In this document: in pieces, positions 15,236 to 53,367 of the stretch
Numbering within the stretch: the stretch's first letter is position 1
Layout of the letters: every line of letters begins with the position of its first letter
Origin: an uncultured Verrucomicrobia subdivision 3 bacterium
Lineage (GTDB): Bacteria > Verrucomicrobiota > Verrucomicrobiia > Limisphaerales > UBA11358
Direction of reading: 5' to 3'
DNA: 64,000 nucleotides
NCBI GenBank assembly: GCA_903865745.1
Contig: CAIPKV010000012.1
Location: 10,953-74,952, forward strand
Position numbers and translations under genes: made by a program
Notes under the pieces: generated by a model
What the model was told of the DNA's origin: nothing
What the model saw: only the letters and a program-made list of their open reading frames with translations
Databases searched by the model: none

Positions 15236-15281
15236 TGGAGCCAGCTGTCAGGATTGAACTGACGACCCGCAGTTTACAAAA
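15236..15281 (-). other. att site: displaced 3' half of tRNA-Thr(TGT)
   Basis: Reverse complement TTTTGTAAACTGCGGGTCGTCAGTTCAATCCTGACAGCTGGCTCCA runs from the anticodon loop to CCA; 5' half absent; integrase adjacent. Confidence 0.88.
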
Positions 15282-15343
15282 TAGAGGGGCGTGTCTCATA
15301 TCAGCCCAATAAACATTGGCTTGTATTGTTGTCAATTTTCTTG

Positions 15344-15372
15344 TTGACCCCCGCCTTGACCCCCATCATAAT
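15344..15372 (+). promoter_or_regulatory. Sigma70-like promoter TTGACC-N17-CATAAT for the integrase, overlapping a TTGACCCCC direct repeat
   Basis: -35 at 15344-49, -10 at 15367-72, predicted +1 about 15379 (the A of ATG); TTGACCCCC at 15344 and 15356. Confidence 0.6.
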
Positions 15373-15378
15373 AAACCC

Positions 15379-16428
15379 ATGAAAACGACGAATTCCGACT
15401 TGTGGGAGCACGTTGAGACCAACCTGATACGGTATAAGCCGACTGGCGGCTACTATGTGAAGGCGAAGGTTCACGGCAAGAAGGTGCGGGAATCACTCAA
15501 CACTGACAAGCTCCCTGACGCACGGCGACAGGTTTCCGCCTGGCTGGCTCGTGTCCGAGGCGGCAGCACCCACGTCCGATCCGGCTTGTTGATGCAGACG
15601 CCGATTGAGGAATGGAAGAACTGGATCAACAACAAGGTGCAGGCACCACGCACGCGCGAATGCCGGCTGGACAACTGGCGAGTTGTCATCGAGCCCACCT
15701 GGCCACACCTGGCGACGACCAAAATTAACTCCGTGACCAGGCATGATGTCGAGAGCTGGCGGGACGGGCTGATTACGAAGCACAAATACTCCGTATCACA
15801 GGCCAACCAATGCCTAGGCACATTGAAACAGATTTTCAGGATAGCGGAGAACAAAGGGATGCTGTTGCATGATTCGCCGGCAGCTAGGGTGAAGCAGCTC
15901 AGGCAGCCGGCAAAGAAGTTGGTATTACCCACCAAAGCCGATTTCGCCAAGCTCCGGGCGGTAGTCTATGGCCGAAGCCCTAGGGGAGGCGAGCTGTTCG
16001 ATTTCCTGAGCCTCAGCGGAGCGCGTATTGACTCCGCAAACCACGTCACCTGGGGAAACGTGGACTGGACGGCGAACAAGCTCCACTTCACCGTGGCTAA
16101 GCGTGGAGGATACAGCATACCGCTATTTGCCCCGCTGAAGGCCTTCCTGTTGAAGATACGGCCACCCAGCCAGAAGGCGGACACCAAGGTCCTGAAGGTG
16201 AAGAGCATTAAGAAAGTTTTAGGCAATAGCTGCCGATGGATGGGAATACACCATCTTAGCCACCACGATTTGAGGCACTGGTTTGCCACACGAGCCATTG
16301 AGCAAGGCGTGGACATCCCCACCCTTAGCCGGTGGATAGGCCACAAAGACGGCGGAGCGCTGGCGCTGAGGGTGTACGGGCACCTACGGGACGAACATAG
16401 CCAGACCGAAGCACTGAAAATAACATGA
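15379..16428 (+). CDS. Tyrosine recombinase/integrase
   Basis: SGARIDS, HHDLRH, WIGH and VYGH catalytic motifs; ATG at 15379. Confidence 0.93.
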   Translation: MKTTNSDLWEHVETNLIRYKPTGGYYVKAKVHGKKVRESLNTDKLPDARRQVSAWLARVRGGSTHVRSGLLMQTPIEEWKNWINNKVQAPRTRECRLDNWRVVIEPTWPHLATTKINSVTRHDVESWRDGLITKHKYSVSQANQCLGTLKQIFRIAENKGMLLHDSPAARVKQLRQPAKKLVLPTKADFAKLRAVVYGRSPRGGELFDFLSLSGARIDSANHVTWGNVDWTANKLHFTVAKRGGYSIPLFAPLKAFLLKIRPPSQKADTKVLKVKSIKKVLGNSCRWMGIHHLSHHDLRHWFATRAIEQGVDIPTLSRWIGHKDGGALALRVYGHLRDEHSQTEALKIT

Positions 16429-16616
16429 ATCGCCTGCTCAGAGACCTCTTTTTCGCCAGCGCGCTTGGAGCGCTGCTTGGAAACGCCATCGGCATTTTTA
16501 TCCGCCGCCGCAACGAGCGCATGGCCGCAACTGCTCCTGTCCAGCGCAGCCGAGCCAGCCATGCACCCGAACTTGCCGTTCGGTGGTACGGGCGGAACCC
16601 GAACAGCATTGGCTGA
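16425..16616 (+). CDS. Small membrane protein
   Basis: ATGA overlap with the integrase; hydrophobic segment FFASALGALLGNAIGIFI. Confidence 0.45.
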   Translation: MNRLLRDLFFASALGALLGNAIGIFIRRRNERMAATAPVQRSRASHAPELAVRWYGRNPNSIG

Positions 16617-16638
16617 CCGCACGCGGCTCCTTTTTCGC

Positions 16639-16678
16639 CGAATCGCACACCACATGTGGTAGGAAGGAAGGGAGAGAG
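16639..16678 (+). repeat. Repeat copy A (palindrome ACCACATGTGGT plus purine tract)
   Basis: CGAATCGCACACCACATGTGGTAGGAAGGAAGGGAGAGAG. Confidence 0.9.
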
Positions 16679-16692
16679 AAGGAAAAGGACTT

Positions 16693-17019
16693 TCACAGGT
16701 CGAACGGGTCGAACGGCTTCTTGGTTCTCACGGAATCGATTTGCGCCGCTAGTGTGGAAGCCATGTCTAGCGAAGTTCCCAATAATAGGGCGATGTCGGC
16801 GTTGTTCTCAGGTCGGCATAAAATCAAAGTGAGAATTTCCTGGGCGAGAGCTTCGGCGTCCTGCTGGTCGAATTTGAAGCGCAACACGCGGACGATTTGC
16901 CTGAATTTTACCTCGTTTCGCTCCACCGACTCTTTAAGTTTGCGAACGTGCTCAGCGTGCTCGGTAAAAGCCGCGAAACTGGCAATTTGCAAGAACAGTT
17001 TTAATATATCGGTTTTCAT
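16693..17019 (-). CDS. Hypothetical protein ending FDPFDL
   Basis: 108 aa; ATGA-type coupling to the upstream gene. Confidence 0.7.
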   Translation of the reverse strand: MKTDILKLFLQIASFAAFTEHAEHVRKLKESVERNEVKFRQIVRVLRFKFDQQDAEALAQEILTLILCRPENNADIALLLGTSLDMASTLAAQIDSVRTKKPFDPFDL

Positions 17020-17633
17020 TTTCCTTCGATGGCCAGTGCCTTAATCGCGCCTTCGTTTCCCTTGGCGGCAGCCAAACGCCACAATCTGACCGCCTCGCCG
17101 ATGTCCCGCTCGACACCCTGCCCATTGGCGTAGCAAACACCGAGGTTGTATTGCCCGCCGGCCATTCCATATTTTGCCTGCTCGCGCCACTCTGCGATGG
17201 CATCCTCGATACAACCAGGGCCACTGGTGACCGTCTCTCCTTTCACTTCAACTACCCACGCAAACGGAAGGTTCATCGGCTCGTGGAACGAGTCTTGGAA
17301 CGTAAGGCCAGGCCACTGGCGGCCCAAGTATACAAGCAGACTTTCCGGGGCACCATTGGCTGATTCGAACATATAGACGAGTTCGTTTTCAGTTTCGCTT
17401 TCCAGCCGACAATCTCCAATACGTCGACAGCCCCAATTGGCATAGACCCATTCGAAGTAATCTTCCTCGCCTTCAATCACCTCTTGCGGTATCGGCATCA
17501 GCGAGTCCGGGTTAAAGGCTGAGGGAGGTTCCCCCAGCCCATACGGATGACTGCCAATGGCCCGTTTCTTGAAGTGTTCCAACTCCTCCTTGTTGCCGGT
17601 AATCGTCAACACATTGTAATACCAGTTAGGCAT
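17016..17633 (-). CDS. YubB/DUF1281 ferredoxin-like domain plus Sel1 repeat protein
   Basis: MPNWYYNVLTITG, W..ANWG and FES motifs; GQYNLGVCYANGQGV Sel1 repeat; GGAGG SD. Confidence 0.8.
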   Translation of the reverse strand: MPNWYYNVLTITGNKEELEHFKKRAIGSHPYGLGEPPSAFNPDSLMPIPQEVIEGEEDYFEWVYANWGCRRIGDCRLESETENELVYMFESANGAPESLLVYLGRQWPGLTFQDSFHEPMNLPFAWVVEVKGETVTSGPGCIEDAIAEWREQAKYGMAGGQYNLGVCYANGQGVERDIGEAVRLWRLAAAKGNEGAIKALAIEGK

Positions 17634-17682
17634 AACGGCCTCCGGTTTGTTTCACGCTGATTGCTTTTAACACGTTTTTCAT
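17626..17682 (-). CDS. Putative 18-aa leader peptide MKNVLKAISVKQTGGRYA
   Basis: AGGAG SD upstream; stop overlaps the start of the next gene (ATGCCTAA). Confidence 0.35.
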   Translation of the reverse strand: MKNVLKAISVKQTGGRYA

Positions 17683-17761
17683 ATTTTCTTTTCTCCTGTC
17701 TCTCATTCTCCACTCCGCCAAACTTTCTGCTACGTGAATTTGCAACCAAATGAAAAGATGT

Positions 17762-18541
17762 TCAGCCTGGTGTTTTCGGCTCAATTCTTGACGGGTAAAT
17801 CCCCCAGTAAAACGGGTCGAAGTTCTGGATGTATTTCTCGATTTCATAGTAGGAATTGACGAACCCAGTAAAATCCTTCCACCCGGCCAGCGGTCTGCCT
17901 TTTTCGGGCGAGAAAACGAAAAGTCGCGGCTGCATGAATAGCAGCGCGCTTTCAATTTGGGGTTCCAGCCGCCGCTTGGCAGCCTCGATTTGCAACTCCA
18001 ATTCCCGTGGCTCCCGCCACAGCTTCATTGGCACCATAGTTTGGCACTTGGCGAGGCATACGACTAAGCCGTTGACGTTGTCGCTCCAGGCTTTTTCCTT
18101 TTCCGCCACCACCTTGCACCGCCAATATTCGGCGTGCCGTAGCAGCCGGTATTTTTCGATTAGCCTCGTCAATTCCACGTTTGGCTTCTGGAGGTTCTGC
18201 AGGTTGCCATTGTGATACCAGCCGCCGAACAGGATAAAGGCAGAATGGTATTCCGGGCTCAAGTTGCCCAGGGCCACGAAGAACGGCTCCAATTCAGCCC
18301 AATTTGCGACGTGAATTCTGCCGGCAATCACCCTGTATGTTTCGGCGATTTCCGCTTGGTTCGGGTCACTCGCGGCCACCAACCCACATAGGCGGGTTCG
18401 TTGCTTTCCCAAAAACTCCTGCTGATGTTTCCCCAGCGAGGTTTCGACATCCACGACAGGCTGATTATTTTTGCTGCCGGCATCGCCGACCCCGCCCATG
18501 TCGAGCTGCGGGTTGTTATTCGGAATGAGTGGAGTGTCCAT
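17762..18541 (-). CDS. Hypothetical protein
   Basis: ATG immediately after the relaxase stop; about 259 aa. Confidence 0.6.
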   Translation of the reverse strand: MDTPLIPNNNPQLDMGGVGDAGSKNNQPVVDVETSLGKHQQEFLGKQRTRLCGLVAASDPNQAEIAETYRVIAGRIHVANWAELEPFFVALGNLSPEYHSAFILFGGWYHNGNLQNLQKPNVELTRLIEKYRLLRHAEYWRCKVVAEKEKAWSDNVNGLVVCLAKCQTMVPMKLWREPRELELQIEAAKRRLEPQIESALLFMQPRLFVFSPEKGRPLAGWKDFTGFVNSYYEIEKYIQNFDPFYWGIYPSRIEPKTPG

Positions 18542-18542
18542 A

Positions 18543-19484
18543 TCAGGAGATGTCGATTTGAGGTTGCGGTTTGGTTTCCGGCGCGGCCACCACTTGCGAT
18601 TGGACGTGCCCCTGTGCCTCGCGGATGTCCTTGAGAATTTCTTGGACGTCTGCGCTGGTAAATCCCGAATCATTGAATGCTTCTTGCAGCGCTCCGGGCA
18701 ACGCTGCACTTGGGTTTATTATGGTTGTCATGTTTTCTGTTGGGTTTTCTCCCCAGCCCACCGCACCGGCTTGACCGGTGAGCAGACCGAGGAAATTGAT
18801 GAGCGTGGCCAGCCGGATGCGGCGGCCTTGGTACTTGAATGAAATGAGCGACCCGTCTTTGCGCGTGCGGAAGTCCGTGACTTTTCCGGCTTTGACGAGC
18901 TTGGCCCAGCGGTCTTTCCGCAGGTTTCCCTTTTCATCCAGCAGCGCCAGCGCGAGCAGACGGACATCCAGTTTTTTGGCCTTGGGATACATCGTGAACG
19001 CCTTGCCTCTGCCCCTTCCCCGACCGGAAATAAATTGGAGCGTCCAGGCAAACGACTGAAGCTCCTTGAGGAATTTCGGCCGCAAGTCGAGCGTCCGACG
19101 GCCATTGGAGTTGGAGAAAATCAGATGGATGTGCCGGGTGGAGGTGTCGCGATGCACCCAGCCCAGCATGGAGGCGATACCCATCAGCTTTTGAAAATCC
19201 TTCGCCGCCTGCAACAGTCGCCGGTCAATGTCATCGAGCTGTTCGGCCGTGGCGTTACGCGGAGTTTGGACGGATATAACTGCAGTCCGGCAGACGCGCT
19301 TGGCTCTTGGATCATGGTGGTAGGCCAGCAGCAGTTCGGCGAGTTGCCGGGGAGTTCCCCTAGCCACGCCGGCATCCAAACCGTCGTATGTGCGGGACAC
19401 CTTTTTGGTGTTGGCAAAATACTTTATGGCCTCCACCGGACGGGAGGTGGCACGCAGGTTGATGATGGCGTAGGGAGCGTTCAT
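18543..19484 (-). CDS. HUH relaxase (MOBP/VirD2-like)
   Basis: N-terminal AIKY, WVHRDTSTRHIHLIFSN His-triad motif; coupled to MobC. Confidence 0.82.
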   Translation of the reverse strand: MNAPYAIINLRATSRPVEAIKYFANTKKVSRTYDGLDAGVARGTPRQLAELLLAYHHDPRAKRVCRTAVISVQTPRNATAEQLDDIDRRLLQAAKDFQKLMGIASMLGWVHRDTSTRHIHLIFSNSNGRRTLDLRPKFLKELQSFAWTLQFISGRGRGRGKAFTMYPKAKKLDVRLLALALLDEKGNLRKDRWAKLVKAGKVTDFRTRKDGSLISFKYQGRRIRLATLINFLGLLTGQAGAVGWGENPTENMTTIINPSAALPGALQEAFNDSGFTSADVQEILKDIREAQGHVQSQVVAAPETKPQPQIDIS

Positions 19485-19765
19485 GGCCAGAGTCCTTTCA
19501 GTTTTTGCACCGCTTCATCCACCGCTTGGGCGTCCACCGAGGTGCCCCTGGACACGCGGAGCGATTGATTGATAAGCACCCCCAGGCGGCGCATCTCCGT
19601 CGCCGCCTCGACCAGCTTGCTGATGTCCAATCCCGAAGTGTGTGCCAGGACTATGAATGCCACCGTGCGACCACGAAGCCCCCGCTTAAGCCCCATAAGT
19701 TGCTCCGCCAGTTGCCGGGGAAGCCTGGCACGACCAAAGGAAACACTGGTGGTCTTGCGGTTCAT
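19481..19765 (-). CDS. mobC: MobC-like relaxosome accessory protein
   Basis: MRRLGVLINQ resembles the L.RIGNNLNQ motif; ATGA overlap with the relaxase. Confidence 0.75.
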   Translation of the reverse strand: MNRKTTSVSFGRARLPRQLAEQLMGLKRGLRGRTVAFIVLAHTSGLDISKLVEAATEMRRLGVLINQSLRVSRGTSVDAQAVDEAVQKLKGLWP

Positions 19766-19858
19766 GGCTGTCCTCCTTCAGGTGAACCAGACACCCCCGA
19801 GGCGCTGTCGGCAGGGGGAAGTCCGTCAGAGTTATGTGTGCGGCAAGCTACGCTGTTC

Positions 19859-19910
19859 TGCGCCTTCGGCGCATCACCGCTGCTTGGCAAAGGGGCATCC
19901 GCCCCCTTGC
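19859..19910. promoter_or_regulatory. Candidate oriT
   Basis: Hairpins TGCGCC-TTC-GGCGCA and GCAAAGGGG-CATCCG-CCCCCTTGC, 100-150 bp upstream of mobC. Confidence 0.45.
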
Positions 19911-20554
19911 GACCCTGGTTGCTGGCCGCCGATGCGGCCAGAGCAGCCTCCACCGCCCGCCCGACATTAGGGGCGGAGACGGTGCGTTCGATGACGCGGA
20001 GGCATCCCTTGAGCACATCGGCTTCGATGACCTGTAGGGCGGCCGCAGGAAGCCTGATTGCGCCAATGACAGTGAGTCTGGCGCGGATCAGCGCCGACAG
20101 CGTGGGAGATGATTTATGAGTGGACATCCCTTCGTTGTAATAGAAGGGGGGGTGTCTGTTCCTAAACTATTTTGAAAAATCTTTTGGGGAAGTGTTATAG
20201 ACAGTCGCAGCCCTCGATAGTTGCCCCTTGGGCTTGCGCCCAGGCAAACAAATCGGGTCGGGACGTTGAACAGACTTTTGGGGATCTCGTAAGCGAGCGG
20301 GGTGATGACAACGAAGTCTGACCGAAATGCCGGCAGCACGCCGCGTGTAGCTTGCAGACTGTGAGCCCAAACCTTTTGGTGCAGCTCAGGAACTCCCCCG
20401 TCTGCCAATTGGCCTGACGCCAGGATTGAAACTGTTCATGGGCGTCAGTCTGAAGTCGGTTGCTAAATATCATAAGCATCGTACAGACATTATGAACGGC
20501 AGGGGGTGTCAGTTGCCGCAGAAACTGAGTTGTTAGAGTGCAACGTGCTCTCGA

Positions 20555-20593
20555 CGAATCTCACACCACATGTGGTAGGAAGGAAGGAGAGAG
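20555..20593 (+). repeat. Repeat copy B
   Basis: CGAATCTCACACCACATGTGGTAGGAAGGAAGGAGAGAG; one substitution and one indel versus copy A. Confidence 0.9.
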
Positions 20594-20627
20594 TAAAGTT
20601 CTGTCTCTAGCGTCATTCCTTTTAGGG

Positions 20628-21038
20628 TTAGAGGTCGAACGGGTCGAACGGTGCCCCGATATTTCGCGCAGCAAATTCTCGGACTATGACTTCGCGCCGG
20701 TCGGCAGGAATCATGTCCCATTTACTCGGGTCACAATTTTCAGGTAACGCCAAATTGTTTAGGCGGCACCACTCATGCAATTCGACCAAAAACGTTACAA
20801 CCCAAAACAATCCCTGTGGCGATGAACGAATTATTTCACCGGCGACTTTTATCCATTCTGGGTTAATCGCCCATTTGGATGTTTCCTTTTTCCGGCAAAA
20901 AGGCGAGTGACCGGTATGACTATCATCATGGTTAAAGTCCTCTGCGTAGTAATGTTCGCAGAGCTCATCACTCACTTCGGTTTCCGGGTCTAATTTGCGC
21001 GGAAGGGTTCTGAATTGGTCTCGCACAGGTTGATTCAT
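20628..21038 (-). CDS. Hypothetical protein ending FDPFDL (paralogue of 21049-21516)
   Basis: ELCEHY, SKWAIN and WCRLN..L.LP..CDPSKWDM motifs shared with the neighbour. Confidence 0.75.
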   Translation of the reverse strand: MNQPVRDQFRTLPRKLDPETEVSDELCEHYYAEDFNHDDSHTGHSPFCRKKETSKWAINPEWIKVAGEIIRSSPQGLFWVVTFLVELHEWCRLNNLALPENCDPSKWDMIPADRREVIVREFAARNIGAPFDPFDL

Positions 21039-21048
21039 GGCGTGTCCT

Positions 21049-21516
21049 TTATTTATGGCTGGCGACTTCCCAGTCGCTGTTTAGCGCCAGACCTTCCAAT
21101 ATGGCTTCGCGCTGTTCGCCGGACAGCATGTCCCATTTGCTGGGGTCGCAATCGTCAGGCAGCTCAAGCCCGTTCAGGCGGCACCACGCTTTCAGCTCGA
21201 CCAAAAACTTGACGACGCTCTCCACCTCATCTTCTGTGCATTGTTTCCTTTCGTAATCTGTGCCGGCCAGCTTCCGCATGAAGCCTTTTTCCACGCAGAC
21301 TTCCACCAGCCATTCCCGGTTAATCGCCCATTTCGATTTCCCGCTCCTCGCGTTTAACGGCCAGCAGGGAATTTTTTTGTCTGCCCAATCAATCCAGCTT
21401 TCAGCGGCGTAATGTTCGCAGAGTTCGCGCAGCGCTTCAGCCTCCGGTTCAATTATACGGGGACGAGTGGCGGATTGGTTCAGTTTTAGTTTTGTCGTCG
21501 AGGCGGTGTTTTTCAT
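21049..21516 (-). CDS. Hypothetical protein (paralogue of 20628-21038)
   Basis: Same shared motifs. Confidence 0.75.
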   Translation of the reverse strand: MKNTASTTKLKLNQSATRPRIIEPEAEALRELCEHYAAESWIDWADKKIPCWPLNARSGKSKWAINREWLVEVCVEKGFMRKLAGTDYERKQCTEDEVESVVKFLVELKAWCRLNGLELPDDCDPSKWDMLSGEQREAILEGLALNSDWEVASHK

Positions 21517-21518
21517 AC

Positions 21519-21563
21519 TGGCACGCTGGTCGGGAATCGAACCCGACCGAAACCAATCAGCGT
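21519..21563 (-). ncRNA. Candidate tRNA-like minihelix (acceptor stem plus T arm plus CCA; no D or anticodon arm)
   Basis: ACGCTGA-TTGGTTTCGG-TCGGG-TTCGATT-CCCGA-CCAGCGT-G-CCA. Confidence 0.5.
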
Positions 21564-21638
21564 GAAACCACCCACGATAACTATTTTAATCTGGAGATTA
21601 AAACCGCTCTACATCTATTTTGTGAAATCTTTTCCAAG

Positions 21639-24600
21639 TCAGGAAAAGTGCTCGCGCGCCTTGTCGAGAAACACCGGTAGCATCGTCCGCCGTTCGGGAT
21701 TGTTGTCAGGGTGAATGCACTCTTCCAAGGTTTCCCGCACACAGAGCAGAATACATTTCTTTCGGCATCGGCTGACGGCGGTATAGAGCCAGCGCCGGTT
21801 GGTAACGAGCGATTTGGTCATCACCACGATGCCGGTGTCGCACTCCACGCCCTGGGAAGAATGTCCGGTGCGGCACCACGGCCAGTCCACCTCGTCGAGT
21901 GTCAACCAGCCCACATTCTTCGAGCCATCGGCAGCCTTGTATGTGACTTGAATGGTGTCCGAGGCTTGCCCTGTGGTTACAGTGTCATCATAGACCGTCA
22001 CCAAGCTACCCTTTCGTATCTGGTAGGCAGCGGCCTTTGCCCCGACCTCCACCACCGCCAAAACATCACCTTTTTTGAAATCAAAAATCGTGGACTTATT
22101 GTGGCCAGCCGCCGCCCGCGCCATTTGGAGAATGTTCGAGTTCACCTTGAAGATGTCCGTGTGCCGAGGACAAAAGACCATGAAATTGGATTCCGGTGGA
22201 AGTGCGGTCACAAATCCGGCCGCCGCTTGCATGACCAGGAACTCGCTGGTCATATAATGCACCTCCATGCCTTGCCCGATTTTTCCCGGTACTTGGCCGA
22301 GATGGACTTGTTCAAAAAAATCAACAATGCCGCTGGACAGATGGTTGCTGGTTCGCCAATTGTGCGACAGCTGCGTCCCGGTCACTCCGGGTGTGCCGGG
22401 ATTTCTCTGTACCCACCTGACCAGGTCTTCCCCCACCAAACCCGGCCCGACCGGCATGTTTTGACCCGGCCCGACCGTGAGCAGCACGCGCTTGCCGGGA
22501 GCCCAGCTCATCGCCATCTGACCGGCCACGTCGCAATCCACCTGCCCAATCTCATCCCCGGCGAACACGTCGGCGTCCAAGGCGACGAAGCGTTTCTTTT
22601 GCTTGTGGGGCCTGATGTGATAGGTGGAGTGAATCGTTTCCACGGCCACGCGCTTATTGAGCCGTTCTCGCAGTTGCTGGGCACTTAAATGAGTGGCGCT
22701 GCCCACCCTTGTGACCAGCTTTTTATTCCGCGCAGCCTTCAACTCATTGGCGAGCGTTTCCGTCTTGCCGGTGCCGGGCGCACCGCTGATGACCTCGACG
22801 GAACCGCCGCCGGCACCTTGTTCAATGATCCGCCAGGCGAAGCGCAGTTCCCCGCGAACATAGTCGGCCCACCCGACCCAATCGCCTTTTTCGGGCACCC
22901 AGGCATTGCAGGAAAGGACATGCCGGGAGGCCAGCAGCCAATGCAATGACTGCAACAACCCTTCGTTGCCGAAAATCGCGATGAGCAGGTCGTAAAGGTG
23001 GCTGGACGAGTGGTACACGTCCCCATTTTCAGCCAGCCAAACTCTGACAAGTTCCAACAATAAATCACGCGGTAGCACTTCGTCATCAAACGGGTTTTTG
23101 AATTTCTGGGCGGCAGCGTGTTCCCTGTCCAGAGTTGCAAGCAGGTTGGTAAAACGCGGGTCGCCCTTCAAACGCTGTCGGATTTCCTTTTCGGTAATTG
23201 CCGGACGGGCGGGCGGAGTCTGGCTCTCCATTTGCCCGATTGCCAGCAGCGCCTCCATCGGCTTGAGTTTTTTCTTCTGGGGTTTCCGTGGTCTGGCTGC
23301 TGGGGTGTCATCGCAACTCATGGCGTCAATAATGTCGGGTGGCAGTTTGGAATAAATCTCGATGTTCTTTGAGCTGTCGCTGGCATCAGGCGAGTCCTCT
23401 GGTTTTGCAGGCCTGAGAAAGAACCAGACCGGGGCATCCCATTGGCTCTTGCGACCACGTTTTACCACGATGAAACCCATTTCCTTTAGTGCATCCCGGA
23501 CTGAGGTTTCTCCGTACGTCGTATGGGGGAGCACTTGAGAGATATGGAAGGTCATCTGTCCGCACTTCAGCACCGCCTTTTCCACCGCTGCCAGCACGGC
23601 ATCCGTTTCCCGAGCATATTTCTCGTAACAGCGTTCGATGTCCCGTTCCGTCCAGTCCTGCCAGGTCGCATATTTATTATGCGGAGCACCGTTCAACAAA
23701 AGCGCTTCGTTAAACGCCTTCTCGATTTCATCCAGTACCGGCTTGAATTCGGGAAGGGCAAAAACCAATTGTTTCGCCTTCCCCACTTTTACGCCCCGGT
23801 CCCAAAGAGACTTCCAGGACAGCAGGCAATTGATGTAAAGCCGCGTTCGGTCAGCCCTGTATTTGGTCATCGAGAGGTATTTTCCGCCGGAGCTGCGCGG
23901 CCCGATTTCCCGGCCTAGGTCTTTGCAAAATGTATTGAACGCCTTTTGCGGCAGGTCATTGAAGAGCTTTTGCACCCAAGCCAGGGGTTTCCCCAACACC
24001 TTCGCGATTTTTTCCTCTGACACGTTGTAGGCGCGCAACTGTAAAGCAGACACCTGCTCGCTCAACCCAGCCAGGCTGCCGCCCTGTTTACCCTGCTTGC
24101 CTTTGGCCGGCTTAGCTTGTGGCATCACCGAAATGGCGTCCTTGATGGTCTGGATTTCGACGTTGCCCATGAGCTTCTCCGGTCGCCAAAATGCAAAGGA
24201 TTCCAGGAATCGGGAGGGCCGGTTGCAATTCTTTGAAGCTCCTTCATCCAGACTAAGCGGCCCGGCATAGCCATTTGATTTAATTTCATCCCACAGACAG
24301 TACACGACCAGCTTGGCATCTTCCGTATCCACCCAGTCCGCAAAATAAATTCCGGCATGCACCCCGTTGGGCGTCTGGCCCGCCCAGGCGACCTCCGGAA
24401 TTTTTTCCAGCACGTTCAGCAGTTCGGCCTTTTCGCCGGGAGTCGCGCCCCGCCCCTTGACCCATTCGCCCTGGGCATTCTGCTTCTGTATTTCAAAATC
24501 CAATGTAAGGTCATGCCGCTTGCCGGGATTGATAGAACGATGCTTTCCCCGCTTTTGTTTTTCAATTTCAACTGGTTTGTCCGGGTCATCCCGCCGCCGC

Positions 24601-24836
24601 GCCTTGTCCAACAACTCCGGTGAAAAAATCGCGTTGACGTAGTACTCGAACTTGTAACCGCGAATTTTTAGCGCCCGGGAGTAGAGTTGAAAATTCCGCA
24701 ACTTGGTAATCTTATTTTGCGACACGAATACTTCGCCACGGGTGAGCTGCTGAATTTTCTGAATGTGCAGGTGCGAACCACCCAAGACAGGTGCGGTTGG
24801 TGGCGCTGACGGGGCGGATGGCGTGGTGGTGGACAT
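21639..24836 (-). CDS. AEP-type primase fused to a RecD-like SF1 helicase
   Basis: LTLDFE, QTPNGVH and LDEGASKNCNRPSR (AEP-like); SGAPGTGKT, GDEIGQ, TGHSSQGVE and LYTAVSR (RecD-like). Confidence 0.75.
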   Translation of the reverse strand: MSTTTPSAPSAPPTAPVLGGSHLHIQKIQQLTRGEVFVSQNKITKLRNFQLYSRALKIRGYKFEYYVNAIFSPELLDKARRRDDPDKPVEIEKQKRGKHRSINPGKRHDLTLDFEIQKQNAQGEWVKGRGATPGEKAELLNVLEKIPEVAWAGQTPNGVHAGIYFADWVDTEDAKLVVYCLWDEIKSNGYAGPLSLDEGASKNCNRPSRFLESFAFWRPEKLMGNVEIQTIKDAISVMPQAKPAKGKQGKQGGSLAGLSEQVSALQLRAYNVSEEKIAKVLGKPLAWVQKLFNDLPQKAFNTFCKDLGREIGPRSSGGKYLSMTKYRADRTRLYINCLLSWKSLWDRGVKVGKAKQLVFALPEFKPVLDEIEKAFNEALLLNGAPHNKYATWQDWTERDIERCYEKYARETDAVLAAVEKAVLKCGQMTFHISQVLPHTTYGETSVRDALKEMGFIVVKRGRKSQWDAPVWFFLRPAKPEDSPDASDSSKNIEIYSKLPPDIIDAMSCDDTPAARPRKPQKKKLKPMEALLAIGQMESQTPPARPAITEKEIRQRLKGDPRFTNLLATLDREHAAAQKFKNPFDDEVLPRDLLLELVRVWLAENGDVYHSSSHLYDLLIAIFGNEGLLQSLHWLLASRHVLSCNAWVPEKGDWVGWADYVRGELRFAWRIIEQGAGGGSVEVISGAPGTGKTETLANELKAARNKKLVTRVGSATHLSAQQLRERLNKRVAVETIHSTYHIRPHKQKKRFVALDADVFAGDEIGQVDCDVAGQMAMSWAPGKRVLLTVGPGQNMPVGPGLVGEDLVRWVQRNPGTPGVTGTQLSHNWRTSNHLSSGIVDFFEQVHLGQVPGKIGQGMEVHYMTSEFLVMQAAAGFVTALPPESNFMVFCPRHTDIFKVNSNILQMARAAAGHNKSTIFDFKKGDVLAVVEVGAKAAAYQIRKGSLVTVYDDTVTTGQASDTIQVTYKAADGSKNVGWLTLDEVDWPWCRTGHSSQGVECDTGIVVMTKSLVTNRRWLYTAVSRCRKKCILLCVRETLEECIHPDNNPERRTMLPVFLDKAREHFS

Positions 24837-25045
24837 GATTTATTTTATTGGTTTTAGCCTCTCAATGAAGAAAGTTTCGCAGGACTCCATTCTCATCGCG
24901 CAAAACCGGTTCCTCGGACTCGATGCCGTCAACCTCGACGACCCGTCCGACCGGGAACTGGTTTTGGCCAGTCCGCGATAGCCAACGCGAGGGCGCTCGC
25001 CGGCTATCTGGGGACCAGCGACAGCAGTCGAAAGAGTTTTCTCCT

Positions 25046-25080
25046 TCTCCCTTCCTCCGCACCACATGTGGTGGGCGATT
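25046..25080 (-). repeat. Repeat copy C (inverted relative to A and B)
   Basis: Reverse complement AATCGCCCACCACATGTGGTGCGGAGGAAGGGAGA; 31/35 identical to copy A. Confidence 0.88.
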
Positions 25081-25126
25081 AGCTCGTTCCCGCTCTGGCC
25101 GGAAGCTTTAGTGTTGGCGGGGTTGT

Positions 25127-26380
25127 TCATGGCAGTTTGAATAGAGGGACGGTTTGTTCCTCGATTCCAGCCCTTTTGCTTTGCTTTGGCTTAGGTGCTG
25201 TTAGAGGTTTTTTTGGCTTCGGCGGGGGCAAAGGTGTCCCTACATCTACGAGATTATCGACGGCAACTCCCAAGGAATACAATTTGCTTCTTAACAGGTC
25301 GTGTTCGGCTACCAATTCCATCGCCTTGCCCATGATTACGCCGCCATGATCGGTGGGGACATCGAGTTTCTTTTGGACGGAGCGTTTTTTTCTTTCCTCA
25401 TAAGCTGCCACATGGACGTAATTGACCTTCACTGTGCCTGCCAATTTCTTGAATTTATTTAGCCGTGCTTGAAGGTCGCTCCCGAAATAGCTGATTTCAG
25501 GGCCAATTACTTTCATGTCATTTGTGTCGTATTCGAAGGTTTCGATTCGGCTGAAGCTCTGTGGCGGGCCATCCGCCTTAACAACTCTCTCATCGTTTCC
25601 AAAAGCTAAGTCTCGAATTATCGGGGCCAAATATTTTTGCTTCCCGACATAGGCCGTGAAATCAAAACCCGGCGGGGAGTCTCGAATGTCCGCAATCGTT
25701 TTGAACGACGGCTTGCCGGACTTTAACAATCGCTCGGTGACATCGCCTACGCCGGGAATTTCGTTCACATCCAGCGGTGGTAAAATTGCGTCCCAGTCTT
25801 TGTCGTAGATGACGTTGATGCCGTCCGGGGCTTTTTGGTCGGTGGCAATCTTCGCCATCATCATATTTGAAGCAATGCCAATTTTGCAGTGCAGCTTCCG
25901 TTCCCGAAGGATTCGCACTTTGAGTTTTTCAGCCACCGGACGGGCCAGGTTCAAAGATTCGTCGGAAGTGGAGGCCTGGCAATAGGGGGTCAAATCGATG
26001 TACGCCTCATCCAATCCGACCGTTCCGATGGCCGGGTTGGTAATTCCCATTGCTGTCAGCTCGTCCTTGGTTAATTTGATGATTTCATCCGCCTCGTCCT
26101 CATAGGCCAGGGTTCTTGGGAGCAGCCAGGTCGCCGTCGGGCAGAGTTTGGCTGCCTGCAATGATGGCATTCCCTTCTTAACGCCAAAGTCTCTCGCCTC
26201 GGGGGTGGCCGTGGAAACCACCTTGCGCCGTCTTTTTTTTCCGACGATGACCGGCTTGCCCACCAGGTCAGGATGGTCCCGCAATTCCACCGACGCGAAA
26301 AAAGAGTTCATATCGAAAATCAGGATCACCCGGTATTTGAAATTGGCCGGGGGCGCTGAAGTTGTGACACAGGCGCTCAT
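25127..26380 (-). CDS. dinB: Y-family DNA polymerase IV
   Basis: FDMNSFFASVE, EARDFGVKKGM, GLDEAYID, PGVG HhH; C-terminal QTVPLF clamp-motif-like tail. Confidence 0.92.
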   Translation of the reverse strand: MSACVTTSAPPANFKYRVILIFDMNSFFASVELRDHPDLVGKPVIVGKKRRRKVVSTATPEARDFGVKKGMPSLQAAKLCPTATWLLPRTLAYEDEADEIIKLTKDELTAMGITNPAIGTVGLDEAYIDLTPYCQASTSDESLNLARPVAEKLKVRILRERKLHCKIGIASNMMMAKIATDQKAPDGINVIYDKDWDAILPPLDVNEIPGVGDVTERLLKSGKPSFKTIADIRDSPPGFDFTAYVGKQKYLAPIIRDLAFGNDERVVKADGPPQSFSRIETFEYDTNDMKVIGPEISYFGSDLQARLNKFKKLAGTVKVNYVHVAAYEERKKRSVQKKLDVPTDHGGVIMGKAMELVAEHDLLRSKLYSLGVAVDNLVDVGTPLPPPKPKKPLTAPKPKQSKRAGIEEQTVPLFKLP

Positions 26381-26387
26381 GCAATTT

Positions 26388-27947
26388 TCAGGGACTGCAT
26401 AACAATGCTGCCGCCGCCCGGATGCCTTCGTGGGCGTTTTTATTTTTGGCAATTGCCCGTGCCAGGTTCGCATTTTTTCCATCGCTGAGCCGGTTGAATA
26501 CCTGCGCCAGAATTTCAGGGTTTGTTATTTTTTCCGTTGCGATTGCCACCACATCCAAATTGGCATCCGTTAACGCCACTTTTTCCAATACATCCTGGGC
26601 GATGATGTCTCTCTTTACCGCCGCCTCACGAACGTTCAGCTCTTCGTCAAATGCAAGCTTGCCCAGAGTGCCCGGTTCTTTGGTCCGGCAAGCCACGATT
26701 TCTCTGAAATCAGGAACCTCACTGCTGGCAAATTTTTCCAAAACCTCCTCTGGCAGCCGTCGGCTTTGCAGGGCTTCAATCGCTTCGTGTGGCTCTCCAT
26801 TCAGCGCAATTCTGGCCACGGTTTCCGGCTTAACTTTTCTATTATGAACGATGTTATTAACGACATATTGACCAGGTTGGTCGGCAAATTCATCCAGGAT
26901 TTCAGGCGTGACGTCAGAACGCGAAACCACCCTATGTCGGCATATCCAATCTGTGTCCAGCCTCGGAAGCTGTTTGGCTATTTCTATGGGCAGCGCTTCA
27001 TTTTCAATTAGAGATTCAAGGATGTCTGTGCCCGAAAGCGGATAATTATTGATGTCCAGTCGTCCCGAAAGGAAGTCATCCGCCATTCGCGCAATTAACT
27101 TTTTGTCTTTGACTTCCCGGGCAGCAGCCAGCGTTTCTATTTCATTCAGCCCCCAACAGTGACCGTTAACCACCAGCGGCCAGTGTTTTCTCCAGTCGGC
27201 GTCGCGCGGCATCTCTTTGTTGTTCAGGTACACCGCATATTTTTCTCCATACTTATCACATAAGCTCCGCAGCACAGCGGGGTCTGTCACTCGATTGGCG
27301 TGTGACGCTGCCAAATCCAGATGCCTTCGCCCAATTTCGTTTATGACCGCCGTAGGCGTATGCTTATTATGGCAAATTGAAGACAAAACATTTTTATCAT
27401 CACATTTTGCCAGCATCCGAAGTGTCTCCGGGGAGTGGGTCAGGGTTGCCACGGCCCCTCTTATCTTCGGTTCCACATCGCTTGCAAAGCGGTCAATAGT
27501 TTCTTGTGCGAGCCTCCTGCTAAAAAGAGCTTCATAGGTCACATCTGGATCTGAGTGGCGAGCCAGTTTTTCAATTGTCTCCAACCTGGTGTTTGGGTTT
27601 TCGACGATCGAACGAATCCAGCAGCAGTTCCCAAATGCCGCCCATTTATCCAGCTCTTCAGGAGGCGCGTCTGTTCTCTTGCATAAATAGTAAGGGGGCT
27701 GCCAATGCTTTTTCCCGTATTTCGCCAATTCGTTGGCCTTTTCAAAAGGCAGAACTAAGTTTCTCACCAACATACCTATTAATTCGCCGCCATCAGTGAT
27801 GGGTTTGGCCAACAACTCATCAGCCATGCGGCATACTGTATCCAATTCTTTGGCTAGAAACGCGGCCTCTTTCGAGTGCACATCGTCAAGGCCCCAGGTC
27901 CAACCCTCGACCACAATAGGCTGTTCCGATTGCGGGGTAGCACTCAT
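26388..27947 (-). CDS. HEAT/LRV-like alpha-solenoid repeat protein
   Basis: Repeated NPNT..ETIEKLA..D..V..A units. Confidence 0.65.
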   Translation of the reverse strand: MSATPQSEQPIVVEGWTWGLDDVHSKEAAFLAKELDTVCRMADELLAKPITDGGELIGMLVRNLVLPFEKANELAKYGKKHWQPPYYLCKRTDAPPEELDKWAAFGNCCWIRSIVENPNTRLETIEKLARHSDPDVTYEALFSRRLAQETIDRFASDVEPKIRGAVATLTHSPETLRMLAKCDDKNVLSSICHNKHTPTAVINEIGRRHLDLAASHANRVTDPAVLRSLCDKYGEKYAVYLNNKEMPRDADWRKHWPLVVNGHCWGLNEIETLAAAREVKDKKLIARMADDFLSGRLDINNYPLSGTDILESLIENEALPIEIAKQLPRLDTDWICRHRVVSRSDVTPEILDEFADQPGQYVVNNIVHNRKVKPETVARIALNGEPHEAIEALQSRRLPEEVLEKFASSEVPDFREIVACRTKEPGTLGKLAFDEELNVREAAVKRDIIAQDVLEKVALTDANLDVVAIATEKITNPEILAQVFNRLSDGKNANLARAIAKNKNAHEGIRAAAALLCSP

Positions 27948-28603
27948 TTAGCCTTCTTCTTCACTGATGGTTTGGCCGCCCGGCCAATCTTCCTTCGCGT
28001 CGCGCGTTTTGCTTTCTTCTCAGATTTACCAGCCGGAGGGTGGGCAGCGTAGTGGTTTTTGCGCGCCAATAGCTGCAGGACCATTTCGTAGGGAATCAAA
28101 TCTGCCTTGCTGACATCATCGGCGGCTTTGGCCCCGTAGCAGACACGAAACAACTTCAGCAGCTCTTTTTCCTTCTCGATTCCAAGCAGTGTCCAGCCCT
28201 CTGGCCGGCCGGCAATCGGCTTCAATGCGTCCATGACTTTTTGCCGGCCTTGCTCGAAGGCCACAACTTTTGTCGAGGCTACTCCCATTTGTACATAATA
28301 CAGTTGCTCAGGTGTCGCTGCTTTGCGCGAGTAGCGCGGCCTGATCTGGTAGGCCTGCTGAAATGCCGTTATTTCAAGCAATCGCGGGGTGATTTCGGGC
28401 GATTTGTGAAGAATCCATGATTTGCGGACGAATGGTACGCGGCCGCCATGCACCAAATTGTGTCCCATCCCAATGAAGAGCAGGTAGGCATCGAGTTCCA
28501 ATTTCGCCTGATGCAGGTCAATTGGTGTAATTGCGTTGCCATCTTTGAACGAATCTTTGAACGAATGGCCCAACAGTTCAGGTGCGGAAGTTGATTTTGG
28601 CAT
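27944..28603 (-). CDS. Hypothetical protein
   Basis: Operonic ATGA overlap; basic C-terminal tail. Confidence 0.65.
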   Translation of the reverse strand: MPKSTSAPELLGHSFKDSFKDGNAITPIDLHQAKLELDAYLLFIGMGHNLVHGGRVPFVRKSWILHKSPEITPRLLEITAFQQAYQIRPRYSRKAATPEQLYYVQMGVASTKVVAFEQGRQKVMDALKPIAGRPEGWTLLGIEKEKELLKLFRVCYGAKAADDVSKADLIPYEMVLQLLARKNHYAAHPPAGKSEKKAKRATRRKIGRAAKPSVKKKAK

Positions 28604-28627
28604 ATTATTGATTTGTCATTGTTAAGG

Positions 28628-29779
28628 TTAAATTGTTTCTCGCAGTTTCATCCACAGTTTGCCCAGCCAGTTTTGACCGACCCACTGGCCGTTGATTTCG
28701 GCCATGCCCCAGTAAAAAGAATCTCCCCGGGGCCGCGCCGAGCAATCTTCGACAATCATTTTACGGCCCGTGGACTGTAGCAGTTTTTTTATTTCTTCGT
28801 GCTGCTCCCATTTCAGCCGGAGGCATTGGCGCATGATTTCCAGATCCACGTCCGAGTCGGGATTTTCCAGCAGACGGCGGTTCTTCTTGGCAATCATCTT
28901 GACGCCCATTGGCGACTTGCAAGCTGCCAGCTGCTTTTGAATGGCCGGGTGCCCGTCAAACCGCAGCACTTGAAACAGCGCTTCTGAAGTCCGATAGGTC
29001 ACGCCTTTGTGCAAAACGGAATGGGCCGACATGTTGCCCAACGCCCCGTATGGTTCATTGACGGCCCGTATCAAAACCATTTCCGGCATCTTCGGCAGCA
29101 CCGCCTTGTCCGCGATGGCTTTGTCCAGTTGCCGCAACAATTCCTTTTTGTCATCGGCTTCGGCCAGACTCTTCAGCTCGCGCAGCCAGGTCAAAAAAAT
29201 GTCCAAATCTGTGGTGTACGACTTCGGCGTGTAATAAGAATTCGGGCTTTTGACGGGCATCAATTTTACCACCGCCGCCCGAATCGTCGCCGCCGTCAAC
29301 ACTTGGCCGGGGGAATTCTTTGCCGCCGCCTGAAGCACCTTGACGCGCTCCTTTGGTTTCGCCCGGAGCAATTCGCGCATCTGGCCCTCGGTCTTCGGCA
29401 GTACAACCGTGCCAATTGGCACGGTCTTGAGGTCGGCTTCCAGTTTAGAAAATGCTTCGGCGGAGCGGACCAATCGGGTGCCGTAGTTGGCCGTAAAATC
29501 GAATCTGTCTCGGCAGTATGCCTCAAAAGTGGAATGTGTTTTCCGGTAAAGCTCTTCTTCTCGGATGTGCCAAAGCGCCTTGCAGACCTCGACAAATTTG
29601 TCGCCATGTTCGCGGATCACGGCCTCAAGTTGCTGCAGCCGCTTCTCCTGCTTTTCACCTAATTTTTGCAGTGGTTTTTCGACGTCGCCGTTTTGTCCGT
29701 TGCCGTTTCGAGCCGACGATTTTTCTATCGCCGCCTCCCTGCGCGCCGCTGGTGGTTTGCTGGTGGAATTCGTTTTCAT
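28628..29779 (-). CDS. DUF3102-like N-terminal domain fused to a NADAR (YbiA-like) domain
   Basis: LGNM...YRTSEALFQ...KWEQH..IKKLLQSTG..IVED...DSFYWG...GQNWLGKLWMKLR. Confidence 0.85.
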   Translation of the reverse strand: MKTNSTSKPPAARREAAIEKSSARNGNGQNGDVEKPLQKLGEKQEKRLQQLEAVIREHGDKFVEVCKALWHIREEELYRKTHSTFEAYCRDRFDFTANYGTRLVRSAEAFSKLEADLKTVPIGTVVLPKTEGQMRELLRAKPKERVKVLQAAAKNSPGQVLTAATIRAAVVKLMPVKSPNSYYTPKSYTTDLDIFLTWLRELKSLAEADDKKELLRQLDKAIADKAVLPKMPEMVLIRAVNEPYGALGNMSAHSVLHKGVTYRTSEALFQVLRFDGHPAIQKQLAACKSPMGVKMIAKKNRRLLENPDSDVDLEIMRQCLRLKWEQHEEIKKLLQSTGRKMIVEDCSARPRGDSFYWGMAEINGQWVGQNWLGKLWMKLRETI

Positions 29780-30423
29780 CCGCTTCCGAATGCCGATATT
29801 CCAGCATATTTAATGCCGTCAATACCGGTAATCCCCTTGCCATCAAAGGATTTTATCGCGCCCCGCCTGCCCGGTGCCGGCGCGTTTTTGATGGCACAAC
29901 AATTTTTGTTTTCAGCTTTACGATTTTTGCCGGTCAGAATTTTTCCGCTCGAATCAAATTGCCGGGACTGGCAGCCGTTGCCGCCCACCAGCTGTGGGTT
30001 GTTTCCCGCCAATACCACCGGGTTTCTCCCGCCACACGAGCCAAGCATCCCACGACCGGAATCAGTGCCATTCATCGCTCCGCTGTTCATCGCCCGACTG
30101 GTGACGCACCCCTTGTGCTGGTTTCCCAAATCGGCACGGCAGTTCCCCTGATTCTGCACCCGGCTGGCTTTTCCGTCTGAGTGGTCCGGTCGGTTAGTCG
30201 TGTTGCTCACCGTTATCTTTCCACCGCCTCTCGTTCCGCCGTTCCAGTTGCTCCGCGCATCGTTCACGCCATCGTTCCTCTGTCATTCCGTTGCTACTGC
30301 TCCGCCGCCTTGCTCTCTGTCCCTACCGGCTGCCGTTTGCCGCGTCATCGGGTCGTTTGTTTTAAGTCCCTTGTGAAAAACAAAACGCCCCGACAACCGG
30401 GGCCAACTAGAAAGAAAAAACGT

Positions 30424-30693
30424 ATGAGCAAACAAACGAACAAACCTGCAACCGCAACCAACACGCCGGAATCGAACAAGCCGGTTCACGAAATCCGGGT
30501 CAATGGCATCCGTGCCACCATCTGGAAAAACGACACCGACAAGGGGCCGCGTTTCAACACCACGTTCGAGCGCAGCTACCGCGACGGGGAAGAATGGAAG
30601 AAAACCGATTCCTACGGTCGCGAGGATTTGCTGGTTCTCGCGTATGTGGCGAAAGAAGCGTTCCGCTGGATTGTCAGCCAAAACAACAAGTAA
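30424..30693 (+). CDS. Small plasmid/ICE protein (putative ssDNA-binding)
   Basis: PVHEIRVNGIRATIWKN...TFERSYRDGEEWKKTDSY family pattern. Confidence 0.65.
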   Translation: MSKQTNKPATATNTPESNKPVHEIRVNGIRATIWKNDTDKGPRFNTTFERSYRDGEEWKKTDSYGREDLLVLAYVAKEAFRWIVSQNNK

Positions 30694-30740
30694 CCCACAA
30701 CGGCTGGCGGTCGGCAACGGCCGCCAGCCCCTTCAAATTT

Positions 30741-31019
30741 ATGATTCTCGCACAACCAAAATTTCCACTCGGCCAAATCGTGGCCACGCCGCACGCCCTG
30801 GGTAAATTGTCGGCTGCCGAAATTACCAACGCGCTGAACCGCCACCAGGCGGGCGACTGGGGCGACCTGGACAAAGATGACAAGTTGGAAAACGACATCG
30901 CCCTCGAAAAAGGTTTCCGCATTTTGTCGGCTTACACCGGCAACGACGGCATCAAATTCTGGATCATCACCGAATCGTCGCGGGCGGTCACGACCGTCCT
31001 ACTGCCGGAAGATTATTGA
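30741..31019 (+). CDS. Plasmid-related small protein
   Basis: FPLGQIVATPHAL...RHQAGDWGDL...RILSAY...TTVLLPEDY. Confidence 0.8.
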   Translation: MILAQPKFPLGQIVATPHALGKLSAAEITNALNRHQAGDWGDLDKDDKLENDIALEKGFRILSAYTGNDGIKFWIITESSRAVTTVLLPEDY

Positions 31020-37245: not shown

Positions 37246-37252
37246 TGCAAAA

Positions 37253-40942: not shown

Positions 40943-41050
40943 CCGAAAAGAAACCAATTTCACACGCTGCGGAGAAGTGGCTGAATCAGCTTGCCGGCCA
41001 AGTCGGATTTGCCAGACTTGCCCACGTCCGCGTGCCAAGAGAATAAATTT

Positions 41051-42541: not shown

Positions 42542-42558
42542 ACATTTACAGGATTACC

Positions 42559-52668: not shown

Positions 52669-52674
52669 TTTTTT

Positions 52675-53336: not shown

Positions 53337-53367
53337 TTAATCCCATCTATTGCCTTGTTTGTCCCAT
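53337..53367 (+). promoter_or_regulatory. Predicted LytTR box 1
   Basis: TTAATCCCAT-N11-TTTGTCCCAT upstream of the kinase gene. Confidence 0.6.

Follow-up and report, generated by a model that had tools for sequence, protein, structure and literature searches.

Genomic islands that integrate into tRNA genes follow an accepted rule, by which the attP site of the island carries a piece of the tRNA gene and integration thereby regenerates the gene (PMC4383910). tRNA genes are classic landing sites of islands, and both this rule and the software used to find islands assume that the target is regenerated. In integrative and mobilisable elements (IMEs), for example those of streptococci (PMC5357655, PMC5090054) or those of the NBU type, an integrase with its att sites is combined with a relaxase, a small accessory gene upstream of the relaxase gene and cargo, and mating-pore genes are missing. 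Tycheposons of Prochlorococcus pair a tyrosine recombinase that targets tRNA genes with replication-type genes and cargo, have no conjugation apparatus and accrete in tandem at tRNAs (bioRxiv 10.1101/2020.12.28.424599). Here we describe an element on a 64,000-nucleotide stretch of DNA (the window) of an uncultured Verrucomicrobia subdivision 3 bacterium, whose draft genome comprises 3.63 Mb in 87 contigs and is 97% complete. The window is contig C12, positions 10953-74952; subtracting 10952 from a position on C12 gives the window-equivalent position. The element is a real, intact and previously unannotated IME of the Verrucomicrobiota. It shares the features listed above with the streptococcal and NBU-type IMEs, but differs from them in its host phylum, in its unannotated relaxase clade, in having no identified helper and in the fate of its target, which is destroyed and apparently replaced. 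The features of tycheposons listed above are also shared, but tycheposons have been described without relaxases, unlike the present element. We consider it likely that the element compensates for the destruction of its target with a self-contained replacement tRNA.

The element is a single insertion of 65,802 bp in the anticodon loop of the host tRNA-Thr(UGU) gene. A preliminary description, made from the window alone, had placed a mobilisable element at positions 15236-31019; the element is real, but this span covers only its left ~16 kb, about a quarter of the 65.8 kb. The att site in the anticodon loop of tRNA-Thr and the tyrosine integrase named there are both borne out. The ends of the element and the sites of recombination are as follows.

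15236..15280, minus strand: attL, the displaced 3' half of the host tRNA gene by direct reading; the 8-bp core (TTACAAAA on the plus strand) is at 15274-15281
15316..16428, plus strand: tyrosine integrase (PF00589, 36.1 bits), with an in-frame ATG at 15379 as the likely start
15344..15364, plus strand: two TTGACCCCC direct repeats that follow the core and precede the start of int; they may be arm-type sites of the integrase or an int operator
C12:91761-91846 (window-equivalent 80809-80894), plus strand: 86-nt tRNA-Thr(UGU) with a long extra arm (ARAGORN; Rfam, 53.4 bits; minimum-free-energy cloverleaf)
About C12:91860-91900: TTGACCCCC arm repeats of the right end
C12:92028-92035 (window-equivalent 81076-81083): attR core TTACAAAA
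C12:92064-92028 (to window-equivalent 81112), minus strand: displaced 5' half of the host tRNA-Thr(UGU) gene

The 3' half at the left end begins in the anticodon loop (TTTTGTAA), has a normal T arm and ends with the CCA, and the sequence at this position lacks the 5' half. The latter (GCCAGCTTAGCTCAGTGGTAGAGCAGCAGT-TTTTGTAA) is found on the same strand, 17 kb past the end of the window. The two halves lie 65.8 kb apart and overlap in the 8-bp core TTTTGTAA only. Joining the flanks in silico yields a canonical 75-nt tRNA-Thr(tgt), which has intact orthologues in species of the same genus (identity up to 95%). Of the two things expected beyond the window, a second att site and an intact tRNA-Thr gene, the former was found; there is no intact host tRNA-Thr gene at the far end, and the target stays split.

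The attP site of the element reads CCTCTA-TTTTGTAA-TCAGAGG. Its core is set within a 5-bp inverted repeat that resembles an anticodon stem, and TTGACCCCC repeats are present on both arms, with 2-3 copies on the arm remote from int; such repeats also adjoin the integrase genes of two related loci, L011 and L057. Since neither half of the target is contained in attP, the host gene remains split after integration. Neither ARAGORN nor Rfam detected a tRNA at either junction or any tRNA-Thr in the window. Thus, unlike ordinary tRNA-integrating islands, this element kills the host tRNA-Thr(UGU) gene when it integrates. It resembles islands of the Islander definition (PMC4383910) in its tyrosine integrase, in the crossover in the anticodon loop and in having its ends marked by displaced tRNA fragments. 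In contrast to them, it duplicates the 8-bp core alone and supplies a whole, independent tRNA gene, and no fragment of the target that could restore it is present in attP. The same holds for the attR site of a second element, on metagenome contig L056 (see below).

The supplied tRNA gene sits ~180 bp inside attR, on the strand opposite to that of the host tRNA halves. Its score of 53.4 bits against the Rfam tRNA model is close to that of the chromosomal tRNA-Leu (56.3 bits). U8, A14, G18G19 and a canonical T loop are present, as is an extra arm of the form GGA-GAAA-UCC, and G1-C72, C2-G71, C3-G70 and U73 are common to the element-borne and host tRNA-Thr. By its cloverleaf, UGU anticodon and host-like acceptor pairs, it is predicted to be a tRNA-Thr. 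The assembly contains 43 tRNA genes with 41 anticodons, 40 of which are represented by a single gene and one, Met(CAT), by three. The element-borne copy is the sole tRNA-Thr(UGU) gene among them, and a BLAST search with the rebuilt host tRNA revealed no other copy. The anticodons missing from the assembly are Ala-UGC, Ile-GAU and Arg-ACG, whose tRNAs often drop out of draft genomes together with the rRNA operons. The ACA codon is used 3425 times in 975 long open reading frames (ORFs), and by the wobble rules it cannot be read by tRNAs with GGU or CGU anticodons. Judging from this gene inventory, the element-borne tRNA would be the only tRNA in the cell able to read ACA.

An exact-pattern scan revealed a second copy of this tRNA on L056, identical at 86 of 86 positions. 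The neighbouring MgsA-like proteins of the two elements are 86% identical, and the attP arms only about 50-85%. On L056 the tRNA is followed by the same core and then by the 5' half of the tRNA-Thr(UGU) gene of another host, with no regenerating 3' half. Perfect conservation in two hosts while the flanks diverge is the pattern expected of a functional gene under selection, and suggests that the element-borne tRNA functionally replaces the destroyed host gene. The tRNA occurs neither in 400 further genomes of the order nor in the viral contigs of IMG/VR, and a simple scan for sigma-70 promoters gave no hit upstream of it. In a limited search of the literature, no island turned up that is described as leaving its target tRNA gene split and bringing a complete substitute. 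L056 also shows tandem accretion (positions 783-2285): the displaced 5' half belongs to a second element of the kind that carries a 5' half, whose integrase gene (for a 31% identical protein) directly follows it.

The integrase belongs to a family with a different habit. Of 401 genomes of the order, 147 have homologues at 30-39% identity, which almost invariably adjoin a tRNA gene. At 26 of the 29 relatives' loci examined the gene adjoining int is an intact tRNA gene, mostly ~100 nt upstream and divergently oriented. In the single-contig genome G066, a direct repeat comprising the anticodon loop, the 5' half and 40 nt upstream recurs 85 kb away; in G156, the direct repeat is exactly the 37-nt 5' half of the tRNA. 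The positions of these relatives, which carry a 5' half, are as follows.

G066:C1:3752133-3837333 (locus L040): element with the 85-kb-spaced repeat
G156:C9:537517 (locus L022) and G156:C10:5244-5280: element with the 37-nt repeat

The distant elements of the family regenerate their target by a 5' half of their own, and not by the usual 3' half. They resemble the present element in their integrase, in the crossover in the anticodon loop and in the distance of ~100 nt between int and the core, but they carry the 5' half of the target next to int and restore the gene, whereas the present element carries neither half. The targets of 5'-half regeneration in this family span many tRNAs: Met, Ser, Arg, Lys, Val, Thr, His and Leu.

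The closest relative of the integrase (76% identical, locus L011) is found at the same split tRNA-Thr junction, in the metagenome-assembled genome G031. The 3' half of tRNA-Thr(UGU) and 16 nt downstream of it occur twice in G031, once split beside int (L011, 9890-9960) and once within an intact tRNA gene (L012, G031:C88, 1440-1540); the duplication might be due to an ordinary element that restores its target, to an additional copy of the gene or to a mixture of strains. We dropped as unproven the idea that contig C88 holds the right end of the element with the 76%-identical integrase, since this contig lacks the TTGACCCCC arm repeats and has no genes in common with the present element. The genome that carries the present element encodes three further integrases of the same family, at 31-34% identity (C79:20401-21546, C25:72434-73528 and C1:73131-74153), and therefore likely contains several more islands of this type.

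Several observations weigh against an IME that makes good the loss of its target with a tRNA of its own. The long extra arm is atypical for a tRNA-Thr. Only two copies of the element-borne tRNA are known and, both being identical, they provide no covariation evidence. An unassembled second tRNA-Thr(UGU) gene is possible in an assembly of 87 contigs. In G031, an intact tRNA-Thr(UGU) gene lies on another contig, and not all members of the integrase family need leave their target broken. A scan of metagenome contigs did not find the excised attP junction. As regards transfer, VirB4 (PF03135) was not found in the 97%-complete genome, in which no helper is visible and the sole match to a type IV coupling protein (T4CP) is sub-threshold at 16 bits.

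Several of these points are shared by a rival explanation, according to which the element-borne tRNA is a passenger or the relic of a former att site, and ACA is read by a normal gene that escaped assembly or is retained in element-free cells. The draft state of the genome, with three other expected tRNAs missing, the abnormal extra arm and the intact gene of G031 would all fit. However, each of 40 among the 41 anticodons has a single gene, those that are missing belong to tRNAs typical of rRNA operons, and the rebuilt tRNA finds no second gene by BLAST. The perfect conservation between diverging flanks is also difficult to reconcile with a passenger, as is the retention of the threonine acceptor-stem pairs and of the canonical T loop. 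On balance, we regard a passenger tRNA as unlikely.

We now turn to the equipment for mobilisation, which is encoded on the minus strand next to the integrase gene.

16693..17019, minus strand: 108-aa protein ending in FDPFDL; relatives have an ORF of ~98 aa at the equivalent position
17016..17633, minus strand: Sel1-repeat protein (PF08238); syntenic Sel1/TPR proteins in L052-L055
17762..18541, minus strand: ~259-aa protein without a family match, always after the relaxase gene (synteny in L052-L055)
18543..19484, minus strand: predicted divergent relaxase of the MobA/VirD2 superfamily, 313 aa (PF03432, 23.1 bits; motif, fold and distant homologues)
19481..19765, minus strand: 94-aa relaxosome-accessory candidate, whose stop codon overlaps the relaxase start; position kept in all relatives
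19762..20127, minus strand: first gene of the mob operon, 121 aa; frame and start conserved in L052, L054 and L055
20128..20180, minus strand: conserved non-coding block of ~50 nt that immediately precedes the mob operon and, from the alignment, is a candidate for a promoter and/or oriT

The 313-aa protein can be accepted as a predicted relaxase, as the preliminary description had proposed, on the strength of its His triad, its modelled fold and transitive homology to a Pfam family. Its PF03432 score of 23.1 bits is just under the gathering cut-off of 24.6, and searches of PDB sequences with the single sequence or a profile gave no match. Residues Y22, H56/H57, H111, R117, H118, H120 and N125 are invariant in 22 homologues. 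The AlphaFold2 model is confident in the N-terminal domain only; its top eight PDB matches in Foldseek are all relaxase domains, among them MobM (probability 1.0) and MobA of R1162 (0.98), which represent the MOBV and MOBQ types, respectively. The candidate catalytic Tyr (Y22) and the His triad (H111, H118, H120) thus fall on an HUH fold. In a search of 1.84 billion proteins, the family profile retrieved only 91 representatives. PF03432 matches 26 of 30 distant members (best E-value, 1e-11), and the classical HxDxxHPHxH motif is visible in their consensus. An hhalign comparison of the family with the relaxase of L057 was not significant (probability 1.9%), though the Tyr and the HxH did align. 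The predicted relaxase shares the HUH fold, the N-terminal Tyr candidate and the His motif with MobA (R1162, MOBQ), MobM (pMV158, MOBV) and PF03432. It differs from them in its score under the Pfam threshold, in the lack of a sequence match to solved structures and in a conserved C-terminal part of ~190 aa.

All 68 homologues of the relaxase are unannotated, and the homologues of the backbone proteins are labelled Verrucomicrobiota. The clade has no member in 72,556 plasmids, and E. coli genomes and plasmid collections gave no DNA or protein match. The element thus defines an unannotated relaxase clade and, with it, a conserved six-gene mobilisation module in the Verrucomicrobiota, a phylum in which mobilisable elements appear to be poorly documented, as far as a limited check of the literature shows.

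Two further parts of the proposed mobilisation apparatus fared less well. The 94-aa protein had been taken for a MobC, but neither Pfam (including MobC, PF05713) nor NCBIfam or PHROG gave a match, and all of its 66 homologues are unannotated; its likeness to MobC consists of its position and a loose resemblance in the stretch LGVLINQSLR. Nor is it similar to the 90-aa protein encoded upstream of the L057 relaxase. No convincing hairpin was found for an oriT, and the conserved block of ~50 nt is the best candidate. Two larger backbone genes lie upstream of the mob operon.

21639..24836, minus strand: 1065-aa protein with a C-terminal RecD2-like superfamily 1B (SF1B) helicase at about residues 660-1065 (AAA_19, AAA_30, UvrD_C_2; TIGR01448 RecD2)
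25127..26482, minus strand: DinB-like Y-family DNA polymerase (PF00817, 132 bits, and IMS_C)

The DinB-like polymerase agrees with the preliminary description. The 1065-aa protein had been called a primase-helicase, of which the RecD2-type helicase stands (Foldseek match to 3gpl, E-value 7e-13), but the primase has no family or fold support. The N-terminal 660 residues match no family even at an E-value of 10. The structural model is of low confidence and a fold search with it returned helicases only, so that it does not test for a primase. The invariant motifs RHDxTxDFE and GxTPxGVHAGxYF are compatible with an archaeo-eukaryotic primase (AEP), but prove nothing.

Family scans covered about 75 ORF translations, namely those of the element and its immediate flanks. 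Among them, including the 17 kb past the window, there were no families of a type IV secretion system (T4SS) or T4CP, and the element contains no capsid or terminase genes. The absence of transfer genes, originally noted for the window, hence holds for the whole element, and the unseen part in which a T4SS might have been hidden has none. The element has its own integration module with att sites and its own predicted relaxase, without a complete T4SS, which is the make-up of an IME; of the genes expected in an integrative and conjugative element (ICE), namely a VirB4-type ATPase, a coupling protein and mating-pore genes, none was found. Two genes of the leading-region type that are associated with conjugation, ArdC and RadC, are present. 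We infer that the element depends on the conjugation system of a helper.

The lack of a visible T4SS in the genome could also mean that conjugation is not involved at all. The HUH protein would then be a rolling-circle initiator, and the circle would spread by vesicles, transformation or a helper phage, in the manner of tycheposons or satellites. The adjacent large helicase protein would suit such a mode of replication, four distant members of the relaxase family also touch the REP_ORF2-G2P profile, and tycheposons offer a precedent for elements that unite tRNA targets and replication genes with a tyrosine recombinase but lack genes for conjugation (bioRxiv 10.1101/2020.12.28.424599). However, fold comparison ranks mobilisation relaxases (MobM, MobA) and not Rep proteins as the nearest structures, and the great majority of the distant members (26/30) match PF03432. 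Furthermore, the small accessory gene overlaps the relaxase start in the style of a mob operon, the conjugation-associated ArdC and RadC are present, and genes for a capsid or terminase are not. A non-conjugative element is a rather improbable explanation of these data.

The backbone of the element recurs in relatives. The module of 94-aa protein, relaxase, ~255-aa protein, Sel1/TPR protein and ~98-aa protein is found beside different recombinases and replication genes in L052-L055. In L058, the primase-helicase gene, small ORFs and the genes for the 94-aa protein and the relaxase follow one another in the same order. L057 combines int, a helicase, a bona fide PF03432 relaxase at the same position, DinB and cargo consisting of a response regulator (RR), a LamG protein and an RHS protein; it has the same arm repeats, and the displaced 3' half of a tRNA-Thr(CGU) gene lies next to its int. 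The syntenic elements that had been called for as a check therefore exist, with the backbone order kept in L052-L055, L057 and L058. In the present element, the backbone genes are all intact and single-copy in the genome. Conserved order and intact genes argue against a patchwork of dead elements.

It might still be asked whether the 65.8 kb are a tandem or composite of several decayed elements, given the insertion sequence (IS) transposase and low-GC patches in the middle and the tandem accretion at the same tRNA in L056. Against this, there is one pair of tRNA halves and one pair of cores, with no tRNA fragments in between; the order of int, primase-helicase, mob and DinB genes recurs in L057 and L058, accompanied by the RR-LamG-RHS cargo; the right-end arm of MgsA, tRNA and attP recurs in L056; and the backbone genes are intact and not repeated. 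A composite origin is therefore improbable. That the element is an ordinary ICE with its T4SS outside the window can practically be set aside: it does run 17 kb past the window and several of its ORFs have no family assignment, but those 17 kb hold TetR/MacAB-type efflux, ArdC, a GTPase conflict system, MgsA and the tRNA and neither T4SS nor T4CP genes, VirB4 was not found in the genome, and in the relatives, too, no T4SS was seen less than 10 kb from the mob module.

For an IME that replaces its target, we envisage the following cycle. The tyrosine integrase has recombined attP with the tRNA-Thr(UGU) gene of the host at its anticodon stem-loop, and the substitute tRNA would decode ACA throughout the integrated state. 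Excision, if precise, would restore the host gene. The relaxase would then nick an oriT close to the mob operon, and the mobilised element would be transferred by way of the T4SS of some unrelated conjugative element. The helicase protein would support replication of the circular form. How this arrangement arose can be suggested only tentatively: the lineage may have given up the half-tRNA repair patch, destroying its target and supplying instead a complete, atypical tRNA-Thr(UGU). The host would thus depend on the integrated element for ACA, and the element, freed from compatibility with the host acceptor stem, might have gained a wider host range. A self-contained tRNA needs no pairing of an element half with a host half, so that the diverged tRNA-Thr(UGU) genes of different hosts would become usable.

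The two independent copies document an exception to target regeneration, in which an essential single-copy tRNA gene is killed and a complete substitute is brought along. If our reading is true, this is a different solution to the problem of target integrity, as well as a possible mechanism of host dependence or host range, and a blind spot for methods that look for a tRNA accompanied by a tRNA fragment. If the extra arm alters the recognition or processing of the tRNA, the element could also come to govern how a rare codon is decoded.

Much of the cargo is of the defence and competition type. Other genes of the backbone, the cargo and the right end of the element are as follows.

20628..21516, minus strand: two paralogous small proteins of 136 and 155 aa (42% identical), the first of which ends in FDPFDL
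26388..29779, minus strand: 519-aa protein, 219-aa protein and NADAR-domain protein, upstream of dinB on the same strand
31101..34556, plus strand: MmeI-type Type IIG restriction-modification enzyme (Pfam MmeI domains; PADLOC REase_MTase_IIG, 1544 bits)
37133..38410, plus strand: NERD nuclease-domain protein (PF08378, 107 bits)
40532..47448, plus strand: response regulator, LamG-domain protein and RHS-repeat protein (1648 aa)
49986..51431, minus strand: IS transposase (DDE_Tnp_1 with DUF772) inserted in the cargo region
52114..64000, plus strand: RadC, LytS/LytTR pair, secretin N-domain protein, sedolisin-like peptidase, response regulator and a repeat protein (908 aa) whose ORF extends across the end of the window
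C12:76604-82021 (window-equivalent 65652-71069): TetR with OEP/HlyD/MacB efflux of the MacAB/TolC type (Pfam)
C12:82623-83543 (window-equivalent 71671-72591): ArdC (Pfam)
C12:83660-89905 (window-equivalent 72708-78953; L001 8708-14953), minus strand: four-gene GTPase-associated conflict system (GAP1-N1, DO-GTPase2, GASH, Metallophos-GAAD)
C12:90067-91602 (window-equivalent 79115-80650): MgsA/RarA-like AAA+ ATPase

The DinB gene is preceded by those of the conserved 219-aa and 519-aa proteins on the same strand (25127-28603). Neither of the latter matches Pfam, NCBIfam or PHROG, and the 519-aa protein has no match in PADLOC either; with DinB, they possibly form a novel mutasome-like cassette. 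The gap between the helicase gene and the next one gives an Rfam hit to tmRNA, in the T-arm region at its 3' end (21531-21545, minus strand), that is weak (13.6 bits, E-value 0.024) and not significant by itself. The C-terminal peptide tags of the preliminary description are present: three small ORFs that are otherwise dissimilar (16693-17019, 20628-21038 and 49386-49646, all on the minus strand) end in FDPFDL, all lie within the element, and they are the only such ORF ends in the genome. The peptide may be a shared docking or recognition tag.

Among the cargo, a 433-aa ORF at 56023-57324 has GspD N0 and Secretin_N domains, with no C-terminal channel domain of a secretin reported, and may be a truncated or specialised secretin fragment. 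The GTPase conflict system adjoins ArdC, and its phosphoesterase is the only component to match the candidate models of PADLOC. Two diverged elements combine the RR-LamG-RHS trio with the same backbone (40532-47448 of the window and 1-4844 of L057), which suggests that the trio is a selected competition or toxin cargo.

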